This document shows positions 3,629 to 18,374 of a stretch of 37,501 bases of DNA, in pieces. The notes under the pieces were generated by a model. It saw only the letters and a program-made list of their open reading frames with translations. It was not told where the DNA came from and ran no database searches. The position numbers and the translations under genes were made by a program. Position 1 is the first letter of the stretch; the number at the start of each line of letters is the position of its first letter. This DNA comes from Promethearchaeota archaeon (GTDB taxonomy: Archaea > Asgardarchaeota > Lokiarchaeia > Sigyniarchaeales > SOKP01): contig RDOA01000021.1 of NCBI GenBank assembly GCA_011364925.1, forward strand, positions 1 to 37,501, written 5' to 3'.

Positions 3629-4345
3629 TCAGTTAAGAAGAAGAATTGATATAATCATAGTTATGCTAAAAGCAGCTAACATTTGGATGATATTTTTCGA
3701 TATTGATTCTTTTGAAATAAATCCTATAAAACTTCCGAGCATAACTATACAAATAAAGATGATTATGAAGGAAAAGATAAAAGTGTGAAAATTTGCCTTC
3801 TCCGTAAAGAAGAAAGGAAAAAGTGGGAATAAGCCTCCCAGAAAAGGTGCGCTACCATTTACAAGTGATACAACTATGGTTGCGAATCTTTCTGCTTTCT
3901 TCTGCAGCGTTCTTACTCTTTTTTGGTTCTTTTTCGGATTTCTTATTCTTCTTTTTCTTAAAAGTTTTTTATCTAAATTCATTGTTATCATTGCTTTTTC
4001 GATTTCTTTATATTCAAAATCAATTTCTTCTTCATTTTTTTTCTGTTCTTCAACGAAAACCATTGCTCTGTCTAACTCTAACTTTAATTTCCGTAGTTCT
4101 GCTCTTTCTGAGATGTAAGACCCACTCAACCCAGATACAAACATCGAGATCGAGGTGGCAAGTCCTGTTAAAAGAATTAGATAACTATCTATAGATAAAT
4201 GATTTCCTCTTATGATTGAAATAAAAAAACCAAGAATAATTCCTAAGATTGTTAACATCCCATCATAGAAATTATTCACAAAGTATCGACGAGCAATGGA
4301 AAAAAAATCAGTTATTTTTGCATACGTCCTTACTTTTTCAATCAT
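3629..4345 (-). CDS. VIT1/CCC1-like (TIGR00267-type) membrane transporter, paralog 1
   Basis: ARRYFVNNFYDGMLT (TM1 Asp), SISMFVSGLSGSYISERAE, APFLGGLFPLFPF; about 5 TM with a charged cytoplasmic insert. Confidence 0.8.
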   Translation of the reverse strand: MIEKVRTYAKITDFFSIARRYFVNNFYDGMLTILGIILGFFISIIRGNHLSIDSYLILLTGLATSISMFVSGLSGSYISERAELRKLKLELDRAMVFVEEQKKNEEEIDFEYKEIEKAMITMNLDKKLLRKRRIRNPKKNQKRVRTLQKKAERFATIVVSLVNGSAPFLGGLFPLFPFFFTEKANFHTFIFSFIIIFICIVMLGSFIGFISKESISKNIIQMLAAFSITMIISILLLN

Positions 4346-4497
4346 TTTACTTTAACTTAATTTTAGACCACAATAAATCTGGTGATCCTTATTACACAAA
4401 TAAGTTTTTTCAAAATATATCTTGATGTTTAACTGTTCTCAAATGTTATTTGGTTATCATCACTTTTATATATATTTGCTATTGGTTGTTGAAGCAT

Positions 4498-5280
4498 TCA
4501 AAGGGAGATTGCTAATTCTAATAAGAGAGAGACAATTAAAGTGGTAACCCCTGCTGTGACAAGGTGTAAAGCATATTTTATACGACCTCCTCCAGAGATA
4601 TTACCTAAAAAAACACCTAAGTAAACTAAAATGCCTACTAAAATGGCATAAGAAAAAATAAATTGGAATAACGATAATACAGTGCCGAAGAAAAATGGTA
4701 TTAAAGGAAGAACTGAACCTAAAACAGGAGCTCCTCCATCTACTATGGATGCAACTATAGTCGCAAACCTTTCTGATTGTTCTATTAAAGATCTTTTCCC
4801 ATTACCTTTATTTCGTTTGACGTCGATAGAATCCATATCAAGATTTTTATTATGCTTTATTTTTATGGGAGTTATCATCGCTTTTTGAATCTCTTTTTTT
4901 TCTAGCTCAAGTTCTTCATGGTTTTGTTTTCCATTTTTCGCATTGAATTCCTCTTCAATAATTACCATTTCTTTTTTTAAATCGATAATCTTCTTTTTTC
5001 GTTCAGCATCTTCAGAGAGGAATGCACCCCAGAGACCACTTATTCCAATAGCTAAAGCTGTAGAAAATCCTGTTATAACAATGATTGCAGAACTTAAATT
5101 TTGACTTGGATGAGATAAAAAGACAATGAAACTTGCACTAATAATACCAGCACAAGTAAGCGCTCCGTCAAAACAATTGTTAAAAAACTTTCTACGCGAG
5201 ATAATGCCTAAATCGGACATTTCAGAGAAACTACGCCATTTGTTCAATTTAGACTTGAAACCCATTTTGGGTAAAGACAC
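4498..5280 (-). CDS. VIT1/CCC1-like (TIGR00267-type) membrane transporter, paralog 2
   Basis: SRRKFFNNCFDGALT, AIGISGLWGAFLSEDAE, APVLGSVLPLIPF; clearly similar to the adjacent gene. Confidence 0.8.
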   Translation of the reverse strand: MSLPKMGFKSKLNKWRSFSEMSDLGIISRRKFFNNCFDGALTCAGIISASFIVFLSHPSQNLSSAIIVITGFSTALAIGISGLWGAFLSEDAERKKKIIDLKKEMVIIEEEFNAKNGKQNHEELELEKKEIQKAMITPIKIKHNKNLDMDSIDVKRNKGNGKRSLIEQSERFATIVASIVDGGAPVLGSVLPLIPFFFGTVLSLFQFIFSYAILVGILVYLGVFLGNISGGGRIKYALHLVTAGVTTLIVSLLLELAISL

Positions 5281-5479
5281 CTAATTCATGTACTAAGAAT
5301 TATAGTTAGAATAATTCAAAAGTTACTATAACTCTTATAAGGTATTAATACTATTAATCTTTTTTCAATGAATTTTCCAGATTTTTTATAGATTCGATAT
5401 TTATATTTAAAAACTGATGATTTTTATTTACTTAATCATATAATATGCATAGAAAAATTATCTTATACAGATTCTTAAA

Positions 5480-6124
5480 ATGTCATCAAATCGAAAGGTT
5501 AAAGAAGAAATCATTACGCTTCTTATAGAGCATTCTAGAATAATTTACGATGTTACTAGTGATATGGGCGTATATTACTCCAGTTGGGCAGAAGATTTTG
5601 AATCTAACAAAGAAAATCTAGAAAAGAAAAAAACTAAAATGCAAATATCGGAAGAAGAAGCTGACGAGTTAAAAATTAGGCTAATAAAAAACTTTTCAGA
5701 GGCAGAGGCTTTTAACATGGGGGCTTATGTGAACTTAGTTCTAAGAATGGATGTCATCCTTAATTATCCCCTTGAGTTTGTCGATATGTTGACTAATATA
5801 AAAATTAAAGGCAAAAACGCAAAGGAAATTAAGAAGAGGTATCACAAATTATTGAACCAAGTTTTAGAAATGGTTGACATTTTAAAGACTACTATAAAAA
5901 ACTTAAGAGATAATCCAGATGTCGTTTTTGAAAATACTACAACAATTCATGAACTGGAATCCGAGATCGACAAAACCTACAGGCAATTTCTCGAATTTAT
6001 TTACTCGAATGTTGAAGATATAAGAGTTTTATTAAGGATTAGAGATAGTATAGTTCTTTTAGAGCAGATGGCTGACCGTGTACATGATATTGCAGATGTT
6101 ATGAGAGTTTTATTGTATCAGTGA
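5480..6124 (+). CDS. DUF47 / PhoU-like phosphate transport regulator
   Basis: All-helical 214 aa with duplicated ExxxD motifs (EEEADELK; ELESEIDK) and LEQMADRVHDIAD. Confidence 0.8.
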   Translation: MSSNRKVKEEIITLLIEHSRIIYDVTSDMGVYYSSWAEDFESNKENLEKKKTKMQISEEEADELKIRLIKNFSEAEAFNMGAYVNLVLRMDVILNYPLEFVDMLTNIKIKGKNAKEIKKRYHKLLNQVLEMVDILKTTIKNLRDNPDVVFENTTTIHELESEIDKTYRQFLEFIYSNVEDIRVLLRIRDSIVLLEQMADRVHDIADVMRVLLYQ

Positions 6125-6287: not shown

Positions 6288-6650
6288 ATGAATGGAAAAA
6301 AAAAATTTTATATATTACTCGGAGTTTTCCAGTTAGTACTTATAGCAATTGTATTTCTAAGCGTCGATGGCGTGGTTACATTTGTAGCAGCACAAACAAC
6401 CAGTTTTGATTATTTTGATTCTGGAACATCAGCAGCTCTGGCGATCGCAGCGTCAATAGCTCTTGCTGCGTCAGTAATAGGTAGTGGCATTGCTTTAAGA
6501 ACAGTTGGAACTGCAGCTATATCTTCCTTATCCGAGAGAGAAGAAAGTTTTTTCAAAGCATTCCTAGTTGTTGCATTATGTGAAGCTTTAGCTGTATACG
6601 GTTTGATTGTTGCAATCCTATTTTGGACAAAAATTCCTAACCCGATTTAA
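6288..6650 (+). CDS. atpK: A/V-type ATPase proteolipid subunit K/c with N-terminal signal-peptide-like extension
   Basis: GSGIALRTVGTAAIS...VALCEALAVYGLIVAIL with the carrier Glu; single hairpin plus an extra N-terminal hydrophobic helix. Confidence 0.92.
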   Translation: MNGKKKFYILLGVFQLVLIAIVFLSVDGVVTFVAAQTTSFDYFDSGTSAALAIAASIALAASVIGSGIALRTVGTAAISSLSEREESFFKAFLVVALCEALAVYGLIVAILFWTKIPNPI

Positions 6651-6691
6651 TATCGTTTATATCATAAATTCTGAAGTTAGGTGATTTTTGG

Positions 6692-7747
6692 ACGAGTATA
6701 ATTATTCCATCTTATGCGTATACATACATCAAAATAAATTTTTTAAAAAATTTAATAATTGATGATGCTACCTTAAGAAATCTTGAGACAATAAATGATA
6801 TCTATTTTTTTATAGAATCTATAAAGAGGTATTATCCTAATATAGAAATAAAAAATTACACAATAGAGGAACTAGAAGGAGCTTTAATTAATAATTATAT
6901 ACTCGTAGTGGGTAAAATTATCCTCTTTTCTCCCCTGAATATGAGAAGTTTTTTAAAGAAGTACTTAATGCAATTTGAAATTCAAAATCTCAAAACAATA
7001 ATTATTAGTTTAATAATAGGGCGGAATAAAGTTGAAACGAGAAAAGACATTAATTTTCTAGCAGAGGAATATTTAGACAACACAGAATTTATTGAAGATG
7101 CGCTTAAGGCTACTTCATTAGAGGAAATACAACTTTTAATGAAAAAAACACCATACAGAATACCAATAAGAGAAGGTCTTCTTTATTTAAAAGAAAAAAA
7201 GGAAGTTTTCGTCTTAGAAGCCTTTTTAGACCAATTATACTATAAGCAACTTCAATCGCAAACTCAAAATCTAACTAAAAAAGAAAAGATAATGATTTCA
7301 TTATTTGTAAGGTATAAAACAGAAATATACAATTTAAATGTGATTTATAGGGGGATCAGAAACAATATTGAGAGATCATTACTAAGACAATTTTTGGTCC
7401 ATAATTATTTATTCTTAGATGAAGGAAGAATTGAATATTTGTTAAACTTAACTAATCCAGATGATTTTGTTCTTACGATAGTAGCATTTCTTAAAGAGGC
7501 TAAAGACGCAAAACCACTTTTCTTACAACATAAAATCAATCAGGACCAAATAATAAGATCTATAGAGGAATTTTATATTACCTATTATTTTAAAAAATTT
7601 AAGATTGAAATTGGTGATATACCATACTACACTATTTCCAAAATATTGGAAGTATTGATTAAAAAAGAAAAAGAAATTAGATTTGAAATTTTACCAAATA
7701 TTATAAGAATCATTCATAAAAAGTTTAAAGTATTGGAAAAGTTGTAG
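6692..7747 (+). CDS. atpC: A/V-type ATPase subunit C/d (start uncertain; ORF track begins at 6908)
   Basis: LEAFLDQLYY and EIYNLNVIYRG motifs. The frame is open upstream to TAA 6665 and encodes SYAYTYIKINFLKNLII, typical of subunit C N-termini. SD AGGTGAT at 6679-6685. Confidence 0.8.
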   Translation, partial: TSIIIPSYAYTYIKINFLKNLIIDDATLRNLETINDIYFFIESIKRYYPNIEIKNYTIEELEGALINNYILVVGKIILFSPLNMRSFLKKYLMQFEIQNLKTIIISLIIGRNKVETRKDINFLAEEYLDNTEFIEDALKATSLEEIQLLMKKTPYRIPIREGLLYLKEKKEVFVLEAFLDQLYYKQLQSQTQNLTKKEKIMISLFVRYKTEIYNLNVIYRGIRNNIERSLLRQFLVHNYLFLDEGRIEYLLNLTNPDDFVLTIVAFLKEAKDAKPLFLQHKINQDQIIRSIEEFYITYYFKKFKIEIGDIPYYTISKILEVLIKKEKEIRFEILPNIIRIIHKKFKVLEKL

Positions 7748-7786
7748 ATTTAATAAAATTAGAAATAATAAGTCGGAGCTGTCTTA

Positions 7787-8098
7787 ATGAAAATTTTTGA
7801 ATGGGTTGAAGAGATAGAAGGAATTTATGAAGATCTAGTTGATAAAACTAGAAATGAAAGTTTAAAAGAGATACAAAAGGAAAGAAATATTCAAGATAAA
7901 TTGTTAGAAGAAACTACTCGGAAGAATCAAGAAATTATTAAAGAAGCCTTAAATACAGTCTCTAAAATACTTAGTGAAGAATCAGCTAAATTTGAAGAAT
8001 TATTAACGAATTTAAACAATAACATCGAGAAATATTATTACGATAATAGAAATGAATTAATTAATACAATGTTCAAGGAATTGGGATTTGATTTTTAA
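7787..8098 (+). CDS. atpH: Probable A/V-type ATPase peripheral stalk subunit H/G
   Basis: 103-aa charged helical protein inside the operon; the only subunit otherwise missing; TAATG coupling to F. Confidence 0.65.
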   Translation: MKIFEWVEEIEGIYEDLVDKTRNESLKEIQKERNIQDKLLEETTRKNQEIIKEALNTVSKILSEESAKFEELLTNLNNNIEKYYYDNRNELINTMFKELGFDF

Positions 8099-8415
8099 TG
8101 CCAGAAGAAAAGATACATATTATTGGTCAAGAAGAAATAGTTACTCTTTTTGGACTTTTAGGAATTGAAGGGACTATAGTTAAACATGATGAGGATTTCA
8201 TGAAAGTTTTTGAAGATTTAACAATGAAACCATCAATTGCGATGATCATTATTAATATGGATCTAACAGATGATCTCTTTGAATTTATATTAGATTTTAA
8301 AACAAATAATAAAATTCCGTTTGTATATGTATTGCCTGACATCTTCCAACAAGATATCGTAAAACATGATAAGATTTATGATATGATTTATGATCTAATA
8401 CAAGAACTTACCTAG
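8098..8415 (+). CDS. atpF: A/V-type ATPase subunit F
   Basis: KIHIIGQEEIVTLFGLLGIEG...IAMIII...PFVYVLPD. Confidence 0.88.
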   Translation: MPEEKIHIIGQEEIVTLFGLLGIEGTIVKHDEDFMKVFEDLTMKPSIAMIIINMDLTDDLFEFILDFKTNNKIPFVYVLPDIFQQDIVKHDKIYDMIYDLIQELT

Positions 8416-8428
8416 AATGAGATGATAA

Positions 8429-9154
8429 ATTATTAGCGAAGAAGATGAAGTTAAGAAGCGGTTTGGAGAATTAGGTTTATACTTAGTTAGACAAGCTGAT
8501 AAAGAGATAAAGAAGATTAACCAGCAGACTCTTTTTCAGTTGGCAGAAATTAAAAGAAAAAATAAAGAGAGAATTTCAGAAAGTTCTATAAAAATGAAAC
8601 AGAACTTTGATGAGACTTACAATAATTTATTGAATAATTTTCTTTCCTCATCTCTTTTGAAAATTAAAGAAGCTATATTAAAAACTAAAAATAAATTAAT
8701 ATCAGATTTCATCTCAGCATTAACAAATCTAATAAACGACAAAATCAAAAAGAATTATTCGGGTTATATTGATTTTTTATTAAAAATCTTAGAAAGTACT
8801 AAAAAGATTATTGATAAACCACCAGAAATTAGAATTACATTTAATTCAAAAGATTATGGCTACTTTAGTGAAAATATGAATAAGATAGAAAAAATCCTCA
8901 AGAACAAAGTAAAGTTGATCAAATCAGAAACTGAATTTACTGGAGGATTTTTATGTGTTGTAGCCACTGGAAATATTTCCTACAATTATACAATTGAAAA
9001 TCAATTAAAAAGAAATACTACTCTTATAGAAATTAGTTTTTCAAAAATATTTTCAGATTTTGAACCAGATGTGAAAAATCTTGAAAATAAATATATTCAT
9101 TTTATTCAGAATCAAAAATTAGCTATCGATGAATATTTAAAGCATTATGAATGA
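8429..9154 (+). CDS. atpE: A/V-type ATPase subunit E (start uncertain; ORF track begins at 8540)
   Basis: TGGFLCV...GNISYNYTIENQL C-terminal motif; frame open upstream to TAA 8426 (IISEEDEVKKRFGEL...); overlaps atpA by 8 nt. Confidence 0.82.
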   Translation: MISEEDEVKKRFGELGLYLVRQADKEIKKINQQTLFQLAEIKRKNKERISESSIKMKQNFDETYNNLLNNFLSSSLLKIKEAILKTKNKLISDFISALTNLINDKIKKNYSGYIDFLLKILESTKKIIDKPPEIRITFNSKDYGYFSENMNKIEKILKNKVKLIKSETEFTGGFLCVVATGNISYNYTIENQLKRNTTLIEISFSKIFSDFEPDVKNLENKYIHFIQNQKLAIDEYLKHYE

Positions 9155-10976
9155 AGTTCAAAGAAAAAAACAGTTTGGGTTCGTATCATCCATTAATGGT
9201 TCACTAATAGAGATAAAAGGGTTAGAAAATCAAGTTCGACTTAGCGATCTCGTTAGAGTGAATAATATATTAGGTGAAGTTATCCAAATTTATTCTGATC
9301 ATGTAATAGCTCAATTATTTGAGAATACTAATAATTTAAAATTAAATCAAAAAGTTACAAGTTTACAAGAACCATTATCTATGGAGCTTGGCCCTGGATT
9401 ATTGGGCACAATTTTCGATGGTATTCAAAGACCTTTAGAAGCAACTCTCTTACAATCAACAACGGGTGGATTTTTAGAAAGAGGGGCGGATTTACCCTCA
9501 TTATCGCGAACGAAAAAATGGTTGTTTAAACCATTAAAAAAGGTAGATGATTCTGTGAATACTGGTCATGTAATTGGTTTTGTCCAAGAAACTCCATTAA
9601 TTAAACATAAAATCTTGGTACCTGTCGGAGTTTCTGGAACACTAACCTATATCGCAGAAGAAGGGGAATATACTATTGTTGATGAACTTTATCGCGTAAA
9701 AAGTGGTTCAAACGAAAAAACTTTTAATATGTTTCAAAAGTGGCCAATAACTAAAAATAGACCTTACAAAAGTAGAAGTTATCCGCACGAACCTTTAATT
9801 ACAGGAATAAGGACAATAGATTTATTGTTTCCTATAGTGAAAGGCGGTACAGTTGCTGTTCCGGGGGGTTTTGGAACTGGGAAGACTGTAATTCAGCAAT
9901 CCTTAGCAAAATGGTGCGACGCGGATGTAATTGTTTTTGTAGGCTGCGGCGAGCGAGGAAATGAAATTGCTGATGTTTTAAAGCAATTTACTGAAATTAT
10001 CGATCCTAAAAGTGGGCGCCCATTACTGGAACGAATTGTTTTAATAGCAAACACTTCAAACATGCCGGTGTCTGCTCGTGAAGCTAGCATTTTTTCAGGA
10101 GTGACAATTGGAGAGTATTATAGAGATATGGGATATGATGTTGCAGTATTAGCTGACAGTACTTCACGATGGGCTGAATCCTTAAGAGAAATCTCTGGTT
10201 TATTGGAAGAAATGCCAGCAGAAGAAGGTTATCCTGCCTATTTACCGTCTAAGATTTCCAGTTTTTATGAGAGAGCGGGAGTTGTGAATATTTATAGTGA
10301 TGAAGATTCATCTAACTTTGGGTCTTTAACAATAATAGGTTCAGTTTCACCTCCCTCTGGAGATTTCAGTGAACCTGTCACTTCAACTACCAAACGCTTT
10401 GTCCAAGCTTTTTGGGCATTAGATGCAAATTTGGCTTATTCTAAGCATTATCCCGCAATAAATTGGCTCAAATCTTACTCTAAATATCCCGATTTCATAT
10501 CAGATTGGTGGTATGAAAGAGATGTTTATTGGCCGGAGATTGATATAGATTGGAATGAATGCAGAAAAGAAATCAACAATATTCTATCTCAAGAAAATGA
10601 ATTAAAAAATGTTACCCAATTAGTTGGAGAAGAAAACTTACCTGAAGATCAACAATTCATTCTTTTTATCTCAAAGTTGATTAGAAATAGTTTTTTAATC
10701 CAAAATGCGTTTGATCCAATTGATTGTTTTACAGATATTAAAAAATTAATAGAATTCACAAAAATAATTCTTTTATTATATCACGAAGGACAACAACTTA
10801 TAGCTCAAGGTTATTTGATAGATGATATTAAAGATATAAAGGTTGTTGATTACATACTGAGAATTGGACAATCTGTTCCTAACGATCAGTTAGCGGAAAT
10901 AGAACAATTAAGGAAGGATTTATCTTATGAAATTGAATCGCTAAAATTAATCCACGGTGCTTTAAAGAAAAAATGA
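9147..10976 (+). CDS. atpA: A/V-type ATPase catalytic subunit A
   Basis: P-loop [54 protein letters not shown]; no intein. Confidence 0.97.
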
Positions 10977-12364
10977 GTGTGATCTATAGAAAAATTAAGC
11001 AAATTATTGGACCGTTACTGTTTTTAGAAAACAAACACGATGTACAATACGGTGAAATCGTCAAAATTCGTTCTGTTGACGGTTCAGAACGCACAGGACA
11101 AGTAGTCAAGATGAATGAAGATATGATAACAATTGAGGTGTTTGAAGATACATCTGGACTCTCTTCAGAAAATGCCTCTATAACCTTTACTGAGGACTCA
11201 TTTAAAATCAAAATTTCTAGTGATATGTTTGGAAGGGTATTCAATTCTTTAGGAAAGCCAATTGATATTAATACAAAACAGGAATTAGACACAGAATTAT
11301 TAACAGAAGTAGATCGAGATATAAATGGTTTACCGATCAATCCCTTTGCACGAGATTATCCCTCTGAAGTTATCCAAACAGGAATTTCAGTGATCGATGG
11401 ACTTTTTACATTAATCAGGGGCCAAAAACTCCCTATTTTTAGCGGTCAAGGCCTACCTCATAATCTTTTAGCGGCTCAAATTGTTACTCAAGCAAAAGTA
11501 CTAACCGAAGAACCTTTCTTAATCATTTTTTGCGGCATAGGAATTATTCAAGATGAAGCTATTTTTTTCATGAAAAGGTTCCAAGAAAGTGGAAATATCC
11601 AAAATATTATATCTTTCATTAACTTCGCTGACGATCCAATTATGGAAAGATTAATCATTCCACGCGTAGCTCTTACAACTGCAGAATATTTTGCTTTTGA
11701 AAAAGACATGCATGTTCTTGTTATTCTGATTGATATGACAAATTATGCAGAAGCTCTTAGAGAATTAAGTTCAGCAAAGGAAGAAATTCCTAGTAGAAAA
11801 GGCTATCCAGGGTATTTATACACTGACTTTGCCTCTATCTATGAAAGAACAGGCAGAATTAAAGGTAAAAAGGGAACAATTACGCAAATACCAATTCTCA
11901 CAATGCCAAACGATGATATCTCTCATCCTATACCCGATACTACCGGATATATCACAGAGGGCCAACTAGTTCTTAATAGAAACTTAGATAAGACAGGTAT
12001 ATATCCTCCGTTCGAAGTATTAGCTTCAATTTCACGTCTTATGAAAGACGCCATAGGTAAAAACACTACAAGGGAAGATCATGCTGATGTTAGTTCACAA
12101 TTGCTTTCATCCTACTCGGCATCTCTTGAGACTAGAGATCTCATATCGATTGTAGGAGAAGATGGTTTAAATTATAATCAAAAAGCTTTATTAAGATTTG
12201 GAAATGAATTTGAAAGGAGTTTCTTAAATCAAGGAGATAAAGAAGAAAGAGATATTAATAAGACTTTAGATATTGCATGGAAAGCATTATCTTCCATACC
12301 TCGAAACCAGTTATTTAGAATACATCATGAATTTCTTGATAAATATTACATTGGAGGTGTGTAA
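10973..12364 (+). CDS. atpB: A/V-type ATPase subunit B
   Basis: [57 protein letters not shown] (Arg finger). Confidence 0.97.
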
Positions 12365-12370
12365 TTACCG

Positions 12371-13003
12371 ATTAGTTTTAGAGAGGTAAAACCTACCAAG
12401 ACCAACTTAATGAGCCTAACTAAGAAATTAAATTTTGCTGAAAAGGGTGAAAACTTTCTAAAATTTAAATTAGAGCAAATTATAATAGAAGTTAAACAAA
12501 ATTGGAAGAATTATGTTTCGCATCGCGAAAAATTTATTGAACTATATAAAGACACGATGATTAAACTAAATAATACATACAAAGATATGGGAAAAAGAAA
12601 TTACATATTAATAAGTAAGTTAAGTAGCATTCAATTTACGCCTAAAATAAATGTAAGGTACAGTAAGAAAATTGGCACCTTAATACCCGTTATAGACTAT
12701 GAATTGATAAGAGAGGAATTTCTTCCTGCTTATTCTTTTGAAAACACAAGTTATTATCTGGATGACCTAATAGTTGTTTTAATAGAATTTTTTGAGAAAC
12801 TCATTAATTTGGCTATGTACGAGGATATTATGCTGAATTTAGCTAAAAATTACAAAAAGATAAATCGCAGGATACTTGGTTTGAAGAATGTAATCATTCC
12901 ACAATTAGTTTATGACATTAAGAAAATTAAAGATATTTTGGAAGAAAATGAAAGAGAAAATTATGTTCGATTAAAAAATACAAAAGATTTGATTAATAGA
13001 TAA
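12371..13003 (+). CDS. atpD: A/V-type ATPase subunit D (start uncertain; ORF track begins at 12410)
   Basis: VKPTKTNL (upstream of the first ATG)...AEKGENFLKFK, KINRRILGLKNVIIP, LEENERENYVRLK; SD GGAGGTG at 12353-12359. Confidence 0.9.
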   Translation: MSFREVKPTKTNLMSLTKKLNFAEKGENFLKFKLEQIIIEVKQNWKNYVSHREKFIELYKDTMIKLNNTYKDMGKRNYILISKLSSIQFTPKINVRYSKKIGTLIPVIDYELIREEFLPAYSFENTSYYLDDLIVVLIEFFEKLINLAMYEDIMLNLAKNYKKINRRILGLKNVIIPQLVYDIKKIKDILEENERENYVRLKNTKDLINR

Positions 13004-13025
13004 AAGGAATGAGTAGTGATTATAA

Positions 13026-15326
13026 GTGGCTAAAAAAAATGTTATGGTACTTTTTAAAGTAAGTTTGAGTCTTAAATATAAGGATATGCTTCTACAGCAC
13101 CTTTCCCAATTAAAACAAGTACATATTAAGCCAAAGACAGAAAAAAGCGGTAGCTATGAAATGGATAAAGAGCTGTTTGAAAGAATTAAAAATTTAAGCC
13201 AAAATGTAGACAACTTATATAAAGACCTTAATATTACTGAATCTGATTTCCAAAAATTATCGTTTGCAGAAAATAACAGACCAAAATTTAAGGCAAAAGA
13301 TATAAACGACTTAATTAACCAATTATCAAGCGAAATTAATTATTTTTCAAATCGGATTAACGAATTAAAAAGATATAAATCTTTAATTGAAGTTGAATTA
13401 GATAAAATAAATAACATCCATGGTAGCTACTTATTTTTAGAGAAATACAATTTAACTCGAGACAAATTAATGAAATTCAAGCATTTAGAATTTAAAGCAT
13501 TCACTACTTTTTCAAAAAACTTAGAAAATATAGAAATAGTTTTTGATTTTTCAAACTTTCCTAATTTCTTATATTATGATTTTTTAAGTGACGATAGATT
13601 AGCATTTTTCATAATATTTCCAAAAGATTTAGAGGCGGAATTTAAAGAGAGAATACGCTTAATACACGCTGAAGAGGTACCAATTTTAAAAAAATACTTA
13701 CTTTCAGATGGAATTAATTTTCCACGTATTGCAAAAGAAATTAAATATATTATATCCTCCTTAAATAAGAATCAGAGGGAGTTTGAACGGTTAAGAGACG
13801 ATAACCTCCTCCTGTTTGCGGCAGCTCACGAGATTATTCAAAACTTAGAGGAATATAATTGGGCATCTTATCAATTTGAAGAGTTAACATCAAGTCAATT
13901 GAGTCTAAGTTTTTACGTTCTTAAACAGAATAGTAAAGCTGTCCATCAAGGTTTAATTGATGAATTTCAAGATAAGATAAATATTGAATCTGTTGAGGTT
14001 GTAAAAAATAAAGCGGTAAAATTAGATTCAGAAAAACTATCAACGCTTCCTGTTAAAGACTCAAAGAAAGCTAAATTAAAAGAAGAAATTGAAGATAAAA
14101 AAGAACTAAAAGATGATTTGAGAGCTTCCGCACCAACAATCATGAAGAATTTTATCTTATTTAGACCGTTTGAAACAATAACAAAAATGTATGGAATTCC
14201 TTCCTATTCTGAGATTGATCCTACCCCTATCATAGCATTTACGTTTCCACTTTTATTTGGGATAATGTTTGGAGATATTGGGCATGGTATTATTTTAATA
14301 ATATGTGGATTATTGGGGGTTGTTGTATACCGAAAAAAGAAAAGTAGAGACTTTATAAATTTTTGCTGGATTATTGCTTATTGTGGTGTCGTTGCAATTA
14401 TATTTGGAACTTTATATAGTGAATTTTTTGGAATGCATGAAATTAAATTATTTAATATAGTATTCCTAGAACTACCAACGATTAACATTAAGATAGTACT
14501 TCCGTTTTTTAATATTACGATAGTAAATATCACTTTACATAATCCTCTTGGAAATATTCTGTCAGTATTTAAGTTCACAGTTCTTATTGGAGTGTTTCAC
14601 CTTAATCTAGGTTGGTTTATCCAATTTATGAATTATTGGAAACAAAAAAAGAAATACTTAGGTTTCACTGATTCTATGATTAAAATATTATTATTAATAG
14701 GAGGGACGATTTTAATATTTGTTTATGGTTTTGATATAAATTCTTGGTTTGGACCGCCTTATCCTATTTTATTAGTTATAATACCAGGAATATTATTAAT
14801 CATTTTAAAACCTATTGGTAAAGCATTACATCTCTCTTATCTAAAGAAGGAATCAGTAGGGTCGCTTCTAGGTGAAGGAACAATGGAAACTTTTGAGACT
14901 TTCTTGTCGATTTTGAGTAATGTAGCTTCTTATATTAGGTTGTTAGCGTTAGCTTTAGCCCACATTTCATTACTATTAGCAATTACAGCTATGTCAAACC
15001 TTATTCAAGGTGAAAGCTTAGTAAACCAAATAGTGTCATATATCGGTTTAGTTTTTGGCAATATTATCGTAATTTTACTTGAAGGATTACTTGTGTTTAT
15101 CAATGCGATTAGGTTGCATTTTTACGAATTTTTCTTCAAATTTTATCAAGGAACCGGAGTGGACTACATCCCGTTTTATTTAAGCGATAAATATTCAAAT
15201 GTCATTTTTGAAGTTTCCAAAGCCAAGGATATTATATCCGAAGAGATAGATAAAGAAATCGAATCAAAGAAAGGCTATCAAGCTATTTTAGAAGCGCAAA
15301 AGTATATCTCTGGAAAATATTTGTAG
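13026..15326 (+). CDS. atpI: A/V-type ATPase subunit I/a
   Basis: PFETITKMYGIPSYSEIDPT, FGIMFGDIGHG, SYIRLLALALAH (essential Arg), RLHFYEFFFKFY. Confidence 0.96.
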   Translation: MAKKNVMVLFKVSLSLKYKDMLLQHLSQLKQVHIKPKTEKSGSYEMDKELFERIKNLSQNVDNLYKDLNITESDFQKLSFAENNRPKFKAKDINDLINQLSSEINYFSNRINELKRYKSLIEVELDKINNIHGSYLFLEKYNLTRDKLMKFKHLEFKAFTTFSKNLENIEIVFDFSNFPNFLYYDFLSDDRLAFFIIFPKDLEAEFKERIRLIHAEEVPILKKYLLSDGINFPRIAKEIKYIISSLNKNQREFERLRDDNLLLFAAAHEIIQNLEEYNWASYQFEELTSSQLSLSFYVLKQNSKAVHQGLIDEFQDKINIESVEVVKNKAVKLDSEKLSTLPVKDSKKAKLKEEIEDKKELKDDLRASAPTIMKNFILFRPFETITKMYGIPSYSEIDPTPIIAFTFPLLFGIMFGDIGHGIILIICGLLGVVVYRKKKSRDFINFCWIIAYCGVVAIIFGTLYSEFFGMHEIKLFNIVFLELPTINIKIVLPFFNITIVNITLHNPLGNILSVFKFTVLIGVFHLNLGWFIQFMNYWKQKKKYLGFTDSMIKILLLIGGTILIFVYGFDINSWFGPPYPILLVIIPGILLIILKPIGKALHLSYLKKESVGSLLGEGTMETFETFLSILSNVASYIRLLALALAHISLLLAITAMSNLIQGESLVNQIVSYIGLVFGNIIVILLEGLLVFINAIRLHFYEFFFKFYQGTGVDYIPFYLSDKYSNVIFEVSKAKDIISEEIDKEIESKKGYQAILEAQKYISGKYL

Positions 15327-15362: not shown

Positions 15363-15887
15363 ATGAAAGACGAAGATGTTAAAGAAATTCCAATGGAAAA
15401 AAAGAAATTTAGGGTGCTCCCCCTTTTAATTGGTTTTATTATAGCTATACTTGTTCTCTTTATTATTATGCTAATTTTTGAAATCAACCCATTTATAATC
15501 GTTATAACACTTGTTTTTGTATCTTTATTATTTGTAGGATACATCTTAAGGCGTAGAAAACAGAAATCACTCTATTCGCAATTATATCCAGACAAAAACC
15601 AAGAGATGATTCAACGTCCACAGAGAAAATTTGAATTAACAATAAAGCCCGAAAAAGAACCTTTAGAAAAGCAATTTAGGGAAGTGAACTTAGATTACGA
15701 ATATCACAAATCTATTATCAACAAATGTGAAAATTGCGGGATGACTATAACAGGTTATCAAAAAACTTGTCCCATGTGTGGTAAAGCAATCGAGACGAAA
15801 GGAGTTATCACAAAATGCAAAAATTGTGGAATGACTATTCCCAGATCAGCAAGAAGGTGTCCTATTTGTGGAGCTCGTGTAACATAA
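15363..15887 (+). CDS. Membrane-anchored (2 TM) double zinc-ribbon protein
   Basis: Two hydrophobic helices, then CENC-x10-CPMC and CKNC-x10-CPIC. Confidence 0.8.
   Translation: MKDEDVKEIPMEKKKFRVLPLLIGFIIAILVLFIIMLIFEINPFIIVITLVFVSLLFVGYILRRRKQKSLYSQLYPDKNQEMIQRPQRKFELTIKPEKEPLEKQFREVNLDYEYHKSIINKCENCGMTITGYQKTCPMCGKAIETKGVITKCKNCGMTIPRSARRCPICGARVT
15714..15884 (+). repeat. Intragenic tandem duplication with 90-nt period, encoding the two Zn ribbons
   Basis: ATTATCAACAAATGTGAAAATTGCGGGATGACTATA (15714) vs GTTATCACAAAATGCAAAAATTGTGGAATGACTATT (15804). Confidence 0.75.
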
Positions 15888-15927
15888 AAATATAAGTATA
15901 TTGATATAATAAATAGATTTAGCAAAT

Positions 15928-17748
15928 ATGGTTATCAAGGAAAAAGAGTCAGTAGCAACAGGATTTATATCTGCAGTTAATGGTTCATTAATTGAAATTA
16001 AAGGTTTGGAAAACCGTGTTCGATTAGATGATTTATTAAAAATTAGTAACTATAATTTTTTATGCTCAGTAATCCAAATTTACTCAGATAGAATTATAGC
16101 CCAATGTTTTGAAAACACAGAGAGTATAAGACTAAAAGAAAGAGTTATTACACTTCATCAACCTTTGTCAATGGAATTAGCTCCTGGTTTATTAACAAAT
16201 GTATTTGATGGGATCCAAAGACCGTTAGATATAACCTTTGAATACTTTCAAGAAGGTAGGTTAAATAAAGGTCTTGAGTTTCCCTCCTTATCACGAACGA
16301 AAAAATGGCATTTTGTTCCAACAAGGAAAATTAAAGAATTTGTAGCCAGTGGAGATGAAATTGGAATCGTTCAAGAAACAACTTTTCTCGAACATAAAAT
16401 TATGGTCCCTCCCGGGGAATCTGGAATTCTTTCTCACCTCATTGAAGAAGGAGATTACACTATTACTGATGAGATTTATACGCTTCATAGTAATAATGAA
16501 GTAAAATCTTATTGTATGCTACAGAAATGGCCAATCACGAAAAGAAAGCCTTTTAGTGAAAAAGTGCAACCTCACGAACCATTAATAACTGGTATAAGGA
16601 TAATCGATTTATTATTTCCTGTTGCAAAGGGTGGTACTTTTGCGGTACCGGGTGGATTTGGAACTGGTAAAACGATTATACAACAAAACCTTGCTAAATA
16701 CTGCGATGCAGATTTAATCGTATTCATAGGTTGTGGAGAACCAGGCAACGAAATTGCGAATGCACTAAAGCAATTTAAAGAAACAATTGATCCGAATTCT
16801 GGACATTCTTTATTGGAGAGAATTGTCCTTATCGTAAATACTTCAAATATGCCTGTTTCAGCTCGAGAGTCCAGCCTTTTTTCGGGTATAACTATAGCAG
16901 AGTACTACAGAGACATGGGATATAATGTTGCAGTTATAGCAGACAGTATTTCACGATGGGCAGAATCTCTAAGAGAAATCTCAGGGCTTTTAGAGGAAAT
17001 GCCGGCTGAAGAAGGGTATCCTGCTTATTTACCATCAAAATTATCAAGTTTTTATGAACGTGCAGGAATCTTTACAACTTTTGGGCGCGATTCTAACGGT
17101 AAAAGAAGAACTGGGTCAATTACTATTATCGGTTCGATATCTCCTCCTGCAGGAGATTTTAGTGAGCCAGTCACATCAGCGACAAAACGGGTTGTTCAAG
17201 GAATTTGGGCTCTAGACCCTAAGTTAGCATATCTTAAGCATTATCCCGCTATTAGCTGGATAAACTCATATTCCAATTACCCTGAATCTTTGGCAGAATG
17301 GTGGGAGAAAGTAGATAATAATTGGCTTGATATAAAACTGAGTTGGGTGGAATGTAGGAAACAAGTGAATGAAATCTTAGCAAAAGAGAATGAACTTAAA
17401 TACATAACTCAATTACTCGGAGAAAAGAATTTAGCAGAAGATCAAAAATTAGAAATTTTCGCTGCTAATTTAATAAGAAATGCTTTCTTCGTCCAAAACG
17501 CTTTTAACGAGGTGGATACTTTTACATCCAGCAGAAAAATGCTGAGTCTCATTAAAGTGATTCTTCTGCTCTATAATAAAACTAAATCGCTTATTAAGCA
17601 AGGTTCTATAATAAGTGATAGAAACTGTGAGAAAGTCCTTAACGAAGTCATGCGCATTAGTCATTATGTTCCGAACGAGGATTTTAAACCAATTGAACTA
17701 CTTAAGAATAATATCAATAACGAATCCATAAGCTTAGTTTATAAGTGA
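15928..17748 (+). CDS. atpA: Second A/V-type ATPase subunit A paralog with degenerate catalytic motif (GEPGNE)
   Basis: Full-length and collinear with 9147..10976; GGFGTGKT intact, but GCGEPGNE (CCA at 16741) and DSISRW. Confidence 0.93.
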   Translation: MVIKEKESVATGFISAVNGSLIEIKGLENRVRLDDLLKISNYNFLCSVIQIYSDRIIAQCFENTESIRLKERVITLHQPLSMELAPGLLTNVFDGIQRPLDITFEYFQEGRLNKGLEFPSLSRTKKWHFVPTRKIKEFVASGDEIGIVQETTFLEHKIMVPPGESGILSHLIEEGDYTITDEIYTLHSNNEVKSYCMLQKWPITKRKPFSEKVQPHEPLITGIRIIDLLFPVAKGGTFAVPGGFGTGKTIIQQNLAKYCDADLIVFIGCGEPGNEIANALKQFKETIDPNSGHSLLERIVLIVNTSNMPVSARESSLFSGITIAEYYRDMGYNVAVIADSISRWAESLREISGLLEEMPAEEGYPAYLPSKLSSFYERAGIFTTFGRDSNGKRRTGSITIIGSISPPAGDFSEPVTSATKRVVQGIWALDPKLAYLKHYPAISWINSYSNYPESLAEWWEKVDNNWLDIKLSWVECRKQVNEILAKENELKYITQLLGEKNLAEDQKLEIFAANLIRNAFFVQNAFNEVDTFTSSRKMLSLIKVILLLYNKTKSLIKQGSIISDRNCEKVLNEVMRISHYVPNEDFKPIELLKNNINNESISLVYK

Positions 17749-17771: not shown

Positions 17772-18374
17772 TTATGGTTTAAACCATTCAAAAAAGTAAT
17801 AACTTAATGTCAAAGGATTTGCAATTACGAACTTTTTCCTTACTGATGTAGCTAAACGACCTGCGCGAACCATGTCAATAGCACTTATTTTTGCGTCATG
17901 CGGTAACACATGAGCGATAAATGGGGAGTGCTCTAATCCTGGTCCTTTTCTATAAACTACAAAATCAGCTCCAAACTTTAGGCCAGGTCTAGGAACGTAC
18001 CCTTTTTCTCTCAAATCTTGATAAATTACGAATTTTTCTTCGAATTTATGGTGTATAGATTTACTTATCTCGTAGAATTCATCGTATGAGTAAAATTTAT
18101 CAAGCTTAGGGTCGTAAATAGTGATTTTATCGTTTTTTAATAAATATGATGCTTCAATTAACGATAATTCGGAGGGTTTCGAAAAATATTCTAATCGAGG
18201 TTTGCTTATCCCTAGAGGAGACCCAAAAAATTTCTGTTTAATGTAGAGATAAGACGCATAAATAGGATTAAAGACAATTACGCGATTATTAATAAATTTC
18301 GTTGGAATCTTTTCAGGGATATCCTTTTCTTCTATATCATCGATTGAAATTTGAGATCCTTTTTCTTCAGTCAT
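17772..18374 (-). CDS. endA: tRNA-intron endonuclease, catalytic subunit
   Basis: LSLIEASYL, YQDLREKGY, GLKFGADFVVY, GPGLEHS, RLATSVRKK (Y/H/K triad). Confidence 0.95.
   Translation of the reverse strand: MTEEKGSQISIDDIEEKDIPEKIPTKFINNRVIVFNPIYASYLYIKQKFFGSPLGISKPRLEYFSKPSELSLIEASYLLKNDKITIYDPKLDKFYSYDEFYEISKSIHHKFEEKFVIYQDLREKGYVPRPGLKFGADFVVYRKGPGLEHSPFIAHVLPHDAKISAIDMVRAGRLATSVRKKFVIANPLTLSYYFFEWFKP

Follow-up and report, generated by a model that had tools for sequence, protein, structure and literature searches.

A second A-type ATPase subunit A with proline at the phosphate-binding arginine position in a family of Lokiarchaeia

The A-type ATPase operon of a Promethearchaeota archaeon belonging to the Lokiarchaeia carries, in addition to its canonical catalytic subunit A gene (A1), a second subunit A gene (A2) in which proline replaces the phosphate-binding arginine that follows the catalytic glutamate, a residue treated as indispensable in rotary ATPases. 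Judged by comparison with its orthologues, A2 is a real and selected gene under constraint like that of A1. It occupies positions 15928–17748 of the window, that is, the whole 37,501-nucleotide stretch of contig RDOA01000021.1 that was analysed; coordinates below refer to the window and to its forward strand unless stated otherwise.

The source genome (3.9 Mb in 112 contigs, 100% complete) contains a single detectable rotary ATPase. Profile matches place its operon, with genes for subunits K, C, H, F, E, A1, B, D and I, at 6288–15326; a search of the genome beyond this operon found no further A (other than A2), B, D, I or K gene and no sign of a hidden second operon. A1 (9147–10976) has the motif GCGERGNE with the arginine in place, and subunit B (10973–12364, identified by profile), the only B in the genome, has its arginine-finger motif. 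Directly 5′ of A2 stands a gene for a two-helix membrane protein with a double zinc ribbon (15363–15887), A2 starting 40 bases 3′ of this preceding operon gene, and a convergent tRNA intron endonuclease gene (17772–18374, reverse strand) closes the operon. No B gene adjoins A2, in keeping with the first-pass annotation, which had described A2 as having no partner B. A2 apparently belongs to the operon. The spacers before A2 across the family, mostly 16–59 bases long, contain no family-wide promoter-like motif, and a bacterial-type promoter scan yielded nothing above chance; a separate promoter for A2 was thus not found.

Two features of the surrounding operon were noted in passing. Subunits C, E and D each have open coding sequence 5′ of their first ATG, GTG or TTG (6668–6907, 8429–8539 and 12365–12409; 80, 37 and 15 codons, respectively); the stretch upstream of D is kept across the family, where many relatives also have no standard start at that place, and together these stretches suggest ATT or other non-standard start codons. 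At 3629–6124 lie a pair of VIT1-family genes, oriented divergently to the operon, and, just before subunit K, a gene for a helical protein of 214 amino acids with no Pfam match, an arrangement that recurs in this Lokiarchaeia family and its sister family.

A2 is one uninterrupted reading frame of 606 amino acids, 61% identical to A1. It scores 693 bits against the NCBIfam subfamily profile NF003220 (V-type ATP synthase subunit A; cut-off 470) and 130 bits against the subunit B profile, below the cut-off of 349. The Walker A motif (residues 242–249; 16651–16674) and the reading frame are intact, and Walker A and Trp-rich segments are common to A1 and A2, all as the first-pass annotation had it. 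The catalytic Glu271 is kept and is followed by Pro272 (16738–16743), just before a helix formed by residues 273–285; the motif reads GCGEPGNE, with CCA as codon 272 (16741–16743), and the equivalent residue is arginine in A1, R262 in Enterococcus hirae and βR182 in E. coli. The Walker B Asp339 and Arg343, the second phosphate-site arginine, are encoded at 16942–16956. Between them, the Thr-to-Ile change that had been remarked on (Ile341) is present in A2, but it is not diagnostic: about 54% of A2 orthologues keep threonine, and with isoleucine in only about half of A2 sequences, Thr341Ile was dismissed as a second lesion.

Of the features that identify a catalytic subunit A, A2 has the Walker A Lys and Thr, the Walker B Asp and the catalytic Glu; the post-Glu arginine, the acidic rotor-loop residue and a B gene of its own are missing. 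Nor does A2 resemble the non-catalytic subunit B, which is recognized by loss of Walker A, an arginine finger and the absence of the non-homologous region, for A2 retains both Walker A and the non-homologous region of subunit A. Like a pseudoenzyme, it has lost an essential residue while purifying selection persists. With its profile match, four-domain fold and non-homologous region, A2 is by homology a member of the subunit A family that lacks the full catalytic signature. An AlphaFold model of A2 (pLDDT 91.6, superseding a prior model from 58 close sequences with a core pLDDT of 69) superimposes on E. hirae subunit A with a TM score of 0.93–0.94; in this model Pro272, at the start of helix 273–285, is predicted to be tolerated with the fold undisturbed.

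That A2 is a full-length subunit A with Pro for Arg is borne out by reading frame, codon and profile score alike. The codon was also looked for in public sequence data, the first-pass annotation having recommended a check in reads: a contig from a public sediment run spans 15673–16823 with a single mismatch, at 16575, and reproduces CCA. The run is possibly from the source sample itself, and orthologues are the stronger proof. Residue 272 is proline in all 68 full-length A2 orthologues (codons CCT 38, CCA 23, CCG 4 and CCC 3) and arginine in all 55 A1 sequences of the family; the best 53 protein matches to A2 have proline in every case. The public-run contig and the use of four codons by 68 orthologues rule out sequencing error.

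In the genomes searched, the substitution is confined to a narrow group. Sought as an exact DNA pattern, the Pro motif turned up in 75 of the 135 genomes of the source genome's Lokiarchaeia family and in none of the 265 other Asgard genomes searched; four further family genomes have a slightly varied motif, with proline still present. A few genomes of the family bear other Asgard labels, their operon being the same. A scan of all GTDB species, which requires the exact motif, returned at least 119 stretches; among the matches listed, 74 lie within a subunit A frame, all in the A2 gene context, and the remainder are chance. By comparison, 148 diverse representatives of subunit A from all life, aligned at this site, comprise 138 with arginine and none with proline.

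Proline is accompanied by further changes that distinguish A2 from A1: I317L, S436L, D278N, F422 to Val, Leu or Ile, and E500 to mostly Lys or Arg. Leu317 (16876–16878) is found in 68 of 68 A2 sequences, where A1 has Ile in 55 of 55; Leu436 (17233–17235), which adjoins the adenine-pocket motif, is found in 66 of 68 and never in A1. Position 500 (Lys in the source A2; 17425–17427) corresponds in the alignment to D480 of E. hirae, part of the loop that touches rotor subunit D: it is Glu in all 55 A1 and Asp or Glu in most diverse A representatives, whereas in A2 it is Lys or Arg in 54 of 68, Asp in one and Glu in none. The net charge of this loop is mostly −4 or −3 in A1 and mostly −1 or −2 in A2, and the C-terminal rotor-facing domain has 21 near-invariant columns in A2 versus 32 in A1. 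None of the fixed A2 differences adds a basic residue near the phosphate site. Lys248, Glu271, Asp339 and Arg343 are invariant in all 68 A2 (residue 249 is Thr in 66 and Ser in two). Nearly invariant, too, are the adenine-pocket aromatics and segments 356–365 and 407–413, which, going by F1 and V1 structures, we take to line the ring and rotor bearing. The fixed I317L and S436L, the loss of E500 and the clean absence of A2 from many sister genomes go beyond the first-pass annotation.

Pairwise dN/dS (Nei–Gojobori) for A2 is 0.055–0.30 over 12 genome pairs and 0.096 between the source genome and its closest relative, compared with 0.066–0.156 for A1; the ratio, about 0.1 and not near 1, rules out decay. 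Of the four refuting conditions named in the first-pass annotation, three were decided in its favor, by the reproduced codon, the Pro-bearing orthologues and this ratio. Phylogenetic analysis places the A2 sequences inside the A1 diversity of the family, as anticipated from the suggestion of a lineage-internal duplication, and supports A2 as the product of a duplication within this lineage. A single origin is likely, though its support value is low (48); one A2 clade is not rejected by the AU test (p = 0.11), with two A1 sequences falling inside the A2 group in a tree built without the diagnostic columns. In one pair of genomes (G174 and G175) A1 and A2 are 81% identical (dS 0.43) and group together at 99 support once the diagnostic columns are removed, while still differing at 272, 317, 422, 436 and 500; five of nine diagnostic sites differ versus a background of 19% (p = 0.015, the two genomes counting as one event). 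Our reading of this likeness is gene conversion. Residue 204 of subunit B (11582–11584) is Gln in 16 of 22 A2-bearing operons versus one of 24 without A2, a co-variation that is a lead only, for just two to three independent pairs differ (p = 0.25) and the site was picked post hoc.

The distribution of A2 among operons bears on its role. Across 82 distinct A2 loci the zinc-ribbon gene is the upstream neighbor in all 68 with that flank present, and in none of the 82 is there a B gene beside A2. Each complete operon carrying A2 also carries an Arg-type A1; in none of the complete operons examined does A2 stand as the only A. Within the same family, the zinc-ribbon gene is the last gene of many complete operons, which show no remnant of A2, and in several A2-less genomes the stop of the zinc-ribbon gene overlaps that of the endonuclease gene. 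A2, being cleanly absent from many complete operons, is accessory. On a tree of B, D and I its presence requires at least five changes, which indicates that A2 has been lost, and perhaps also moved, repeatedly; as that tree departs from the genus codes, exchange of the operon itself may have taken place. In the sister family, the complete single-contig genomes carry a single A, of the Arg type. Nearly all family genomes examined, and one sister-family genome, close their ATPase operon with the zinc-ribbon gene. It persists without A2, and its product was rejected as a dedicated A2 partner; the membrane protein, which belongs to no named family beyond zinc ribbons, is a candidate extra subunit. 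Two further peculiarities were seen. Three operons (L229, L230 and L231, in G211, G278 and G186), all without A2, encode an A1 of 1151–1157 amino acids with a P-loop insertion of intein-like size and place. In a complete genome of the same genus (G008, locus L047) the sole matched A is distant (47% identity) and the operon order differs, which suggests that the ATPase has been replaced.

The role ascribed to the missing arginine, a ligand of the gamma-phosphate or Pi, agrees with the literature on E. coli F1 and E. hirae V1. R262 is a ligand of ATP at the tight site of E. hirae V1 (PMC9336149). In E. coli, βR182Q lowers ATPase activity from 42 to 0.020 µmol/min/mg, a loss of about 2000-fold, and abolishes synthesis, Pi binding and transition-state formation while Mg-ADP binding is kept (PMC3268026). 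We found no Arg-to-Pro mutant of an A or β subunit in the literature, and the predicted effect of Pro272 is a transfer from Gln and Lys mutants of F1. Since no fixed A2 change restores charge, the R182Q defects lead us to infer a site that binds nucleotide and does not turn over. The first-pass annotation had offered altered directionality as one outcome; this is not supported, as the equivalent E. coli mutants lose hydrolysis and synthesis alike.

What might such a subunit do? We see an even chance that A2 is a pseudo-catalytic subunit that enters the A3B3 head as a brake acting in both directions. On this proposal A2 would fold like A, bind the sole B subunit and occupy an A position in the head; the single B of the genome and the conserved ring-forming segments imply that it competes with A1 for B. 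It would still bind Mg-ADP or ATP, and without the arginine it could not hold Pi or stabilize the transition state. A head containing A2 would then stall or turn very slowly in either direction, as F1 hybrid work, in which one dead site reportedly stops the whole head, would predict, and would brake the only rotary ATPase of the cell, for example stopping ATP loss at low energy. Loss of the acidic rotor-loop residue suggests that the grip of A2 on the rotor is also re-tuned; as F1 can generate torque without the corresponding acids (PMC3879392), the change may affect regulation. Expression of A2, its co-assembly with B, the stalling and its purpose are all inferred. To a narrower version, in which subunit exchange brings the crippled copy into the hexamer, where it holds the rotor locked with ADP bound, we give less than an even chance; if true, A2 would be a natural dominant-negative switch of a kind not known from any F-, V- or A-type enzyme. 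Constant co-expression would poison heads (with 10% A2, 27% of heads would contain it), so some control must exist, and none was found in the spacers. A point against a brake is that the catalytic Glu and all other catalytic residues never vary in A2. This would be unexpected of a dead site; F1 α and V1 B have lost their catalytic residues.

That same invariance is an argument for supposing that A2 is a slow but working isoform, its site re-tuned and not dead. Proline would fix the loop, and a low turnover would be sustained by Lys248 and Arg343 together with the arginine finger of B; the outcome would be a low-gear head whose ADP inhibition or coupling differs. The exclusive use of proline at 272 points to a positive role rather than mere loss, the overall constraint on A2 equals that on A1, and E. 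coli R182K and R182Q retain trace activity; the equivalent F1 mutations nevertheless cost 170- to 2000-fold (PMC3268026). Given also that no new basic residue stands by the phosphate site and that A2 is never the sole A of a complete operon examined, we regard a slow isoform as unlikely. We think it less likely still that A2 acts outside the working head, through sequestration of B, as an assembly intermediate or as a membrane nucleotide sensor held by the zinc-ribbon protein. The more relaxed rotor-facing domain, the lost acidic rotor-loop residue and the constant position 3′ of the zinc-ribbon gene would suit such a role; against it, the zinc-ribbon gene is also kept without A2, the rotor-bearing segments are invariant, and an assembly factor should not be lost repeatedly. 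Finally, that A2 is a sequencing error, an incipient pseudogene or a neutral passenger is scarcely tenable, for its patchy presence and clean absence from many complete operons are outweighed by the use of four proline codons, intact frames in 68 orthologues with identities as low as about 60%, low dN/dS, a conserved position and the codon reproduced in the public run.

The proposed brake can be set against known systems. With the catalytic A of A/V-type ATPases (P. horikoshii 3M4Y/1VDZ, E. hirae 3VR4/3VR6, T. thermophilus 6QUM) A2 shares the full domain set, the fold, Walker A and B, the catalytic Glu and the adenine pocket; it differs from E. hirae A in the replacement of R262 by Pro and the loss of the first rotor-loop acid, D480, and from catalytic A generally in being an extra, dispensable gene without its own B. 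Rotary ATPases are inhibited by IF1, the ε C-terminus, ζ, subunit H of V1 and Mg-ADP, all small proteins or ligands that wedge the head. Their job, preventing wasteful ATP hydrolysis, is the one proposed for A2, and we know of no rotary ATPase inhibitor that is a crippled copy of the catalytic subunit. The non-catalytic B (A/V) and α (F) are, like A2, paralogues of the catalytic subunit in which catalysis has presumably been lost (PMC10656485), but they are ancient and obligatory and supply the arginine finger, and B is without Walker A. Being a young copy of A, A2 still has both Walker A and the Glu, and the place it would compete for is that of A. The E. coli βR182Q and R182K mutants, at the same position as Pro272, predict a subunit that no longer binds Pi or supports synthesis yet still binds ADP (PMC3268026), but these are engineered Gln and Lys substitutions in an F-type enzyme, whereas A2 is natural, apparently selected and has proline.

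As a selected Arg-to-Pro subunit A, A2 is apparently undescribed. A literature search, with subscription papers mostly outside its reach, found no description of it; it goes unmentioned in a survey of Asgard transporters (PMC7997004), and a tree-of-life survey of ATP synthase subunits examined Walker A alone, which A2 retains (PMC10656485). A2 arose inside one Lokiarchaeia family and so has no direct bearing on the origin of the eukaryotic V-ATPase; it does show Asgard archaea diversifying their rotary ATPase by paralogy. An Arg-bearing A1 beside a selected, Pro-bearing A2 offers a natural means of asking how many sites in a V/A head must work. Little is known of how archaeal A-type enzymes are turned off, and A2 may reveal regulation of the motor by subunit swapping.

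Other Asgard genomes, for example those of family f13, likewise have two A-type motifs, but among the matches listed both copies have arginine and lie on different contigs; in one such genome (G031) each of the two A genes has its own B, unlike A2. Degenerate subunits A without the Glu and/or the Arg were also encountered, at L240:490–2253 (P0180), L242:3251–4762 (P0182, the only A of a reduced operon) and L241:6001–7959 (P0219, also without the P-loop Lys, from eukaryotic assembly GCA_000165425.1, presumably Paramecium). These isolated degenerate subunits carry changes other than those of A2. The source genome also encodes two membrane pyrophosphatases (G000:C27:109449–111449 and C70:4–1875), which would offer an alternative means of energizing the membrane if the ATPase is braked.
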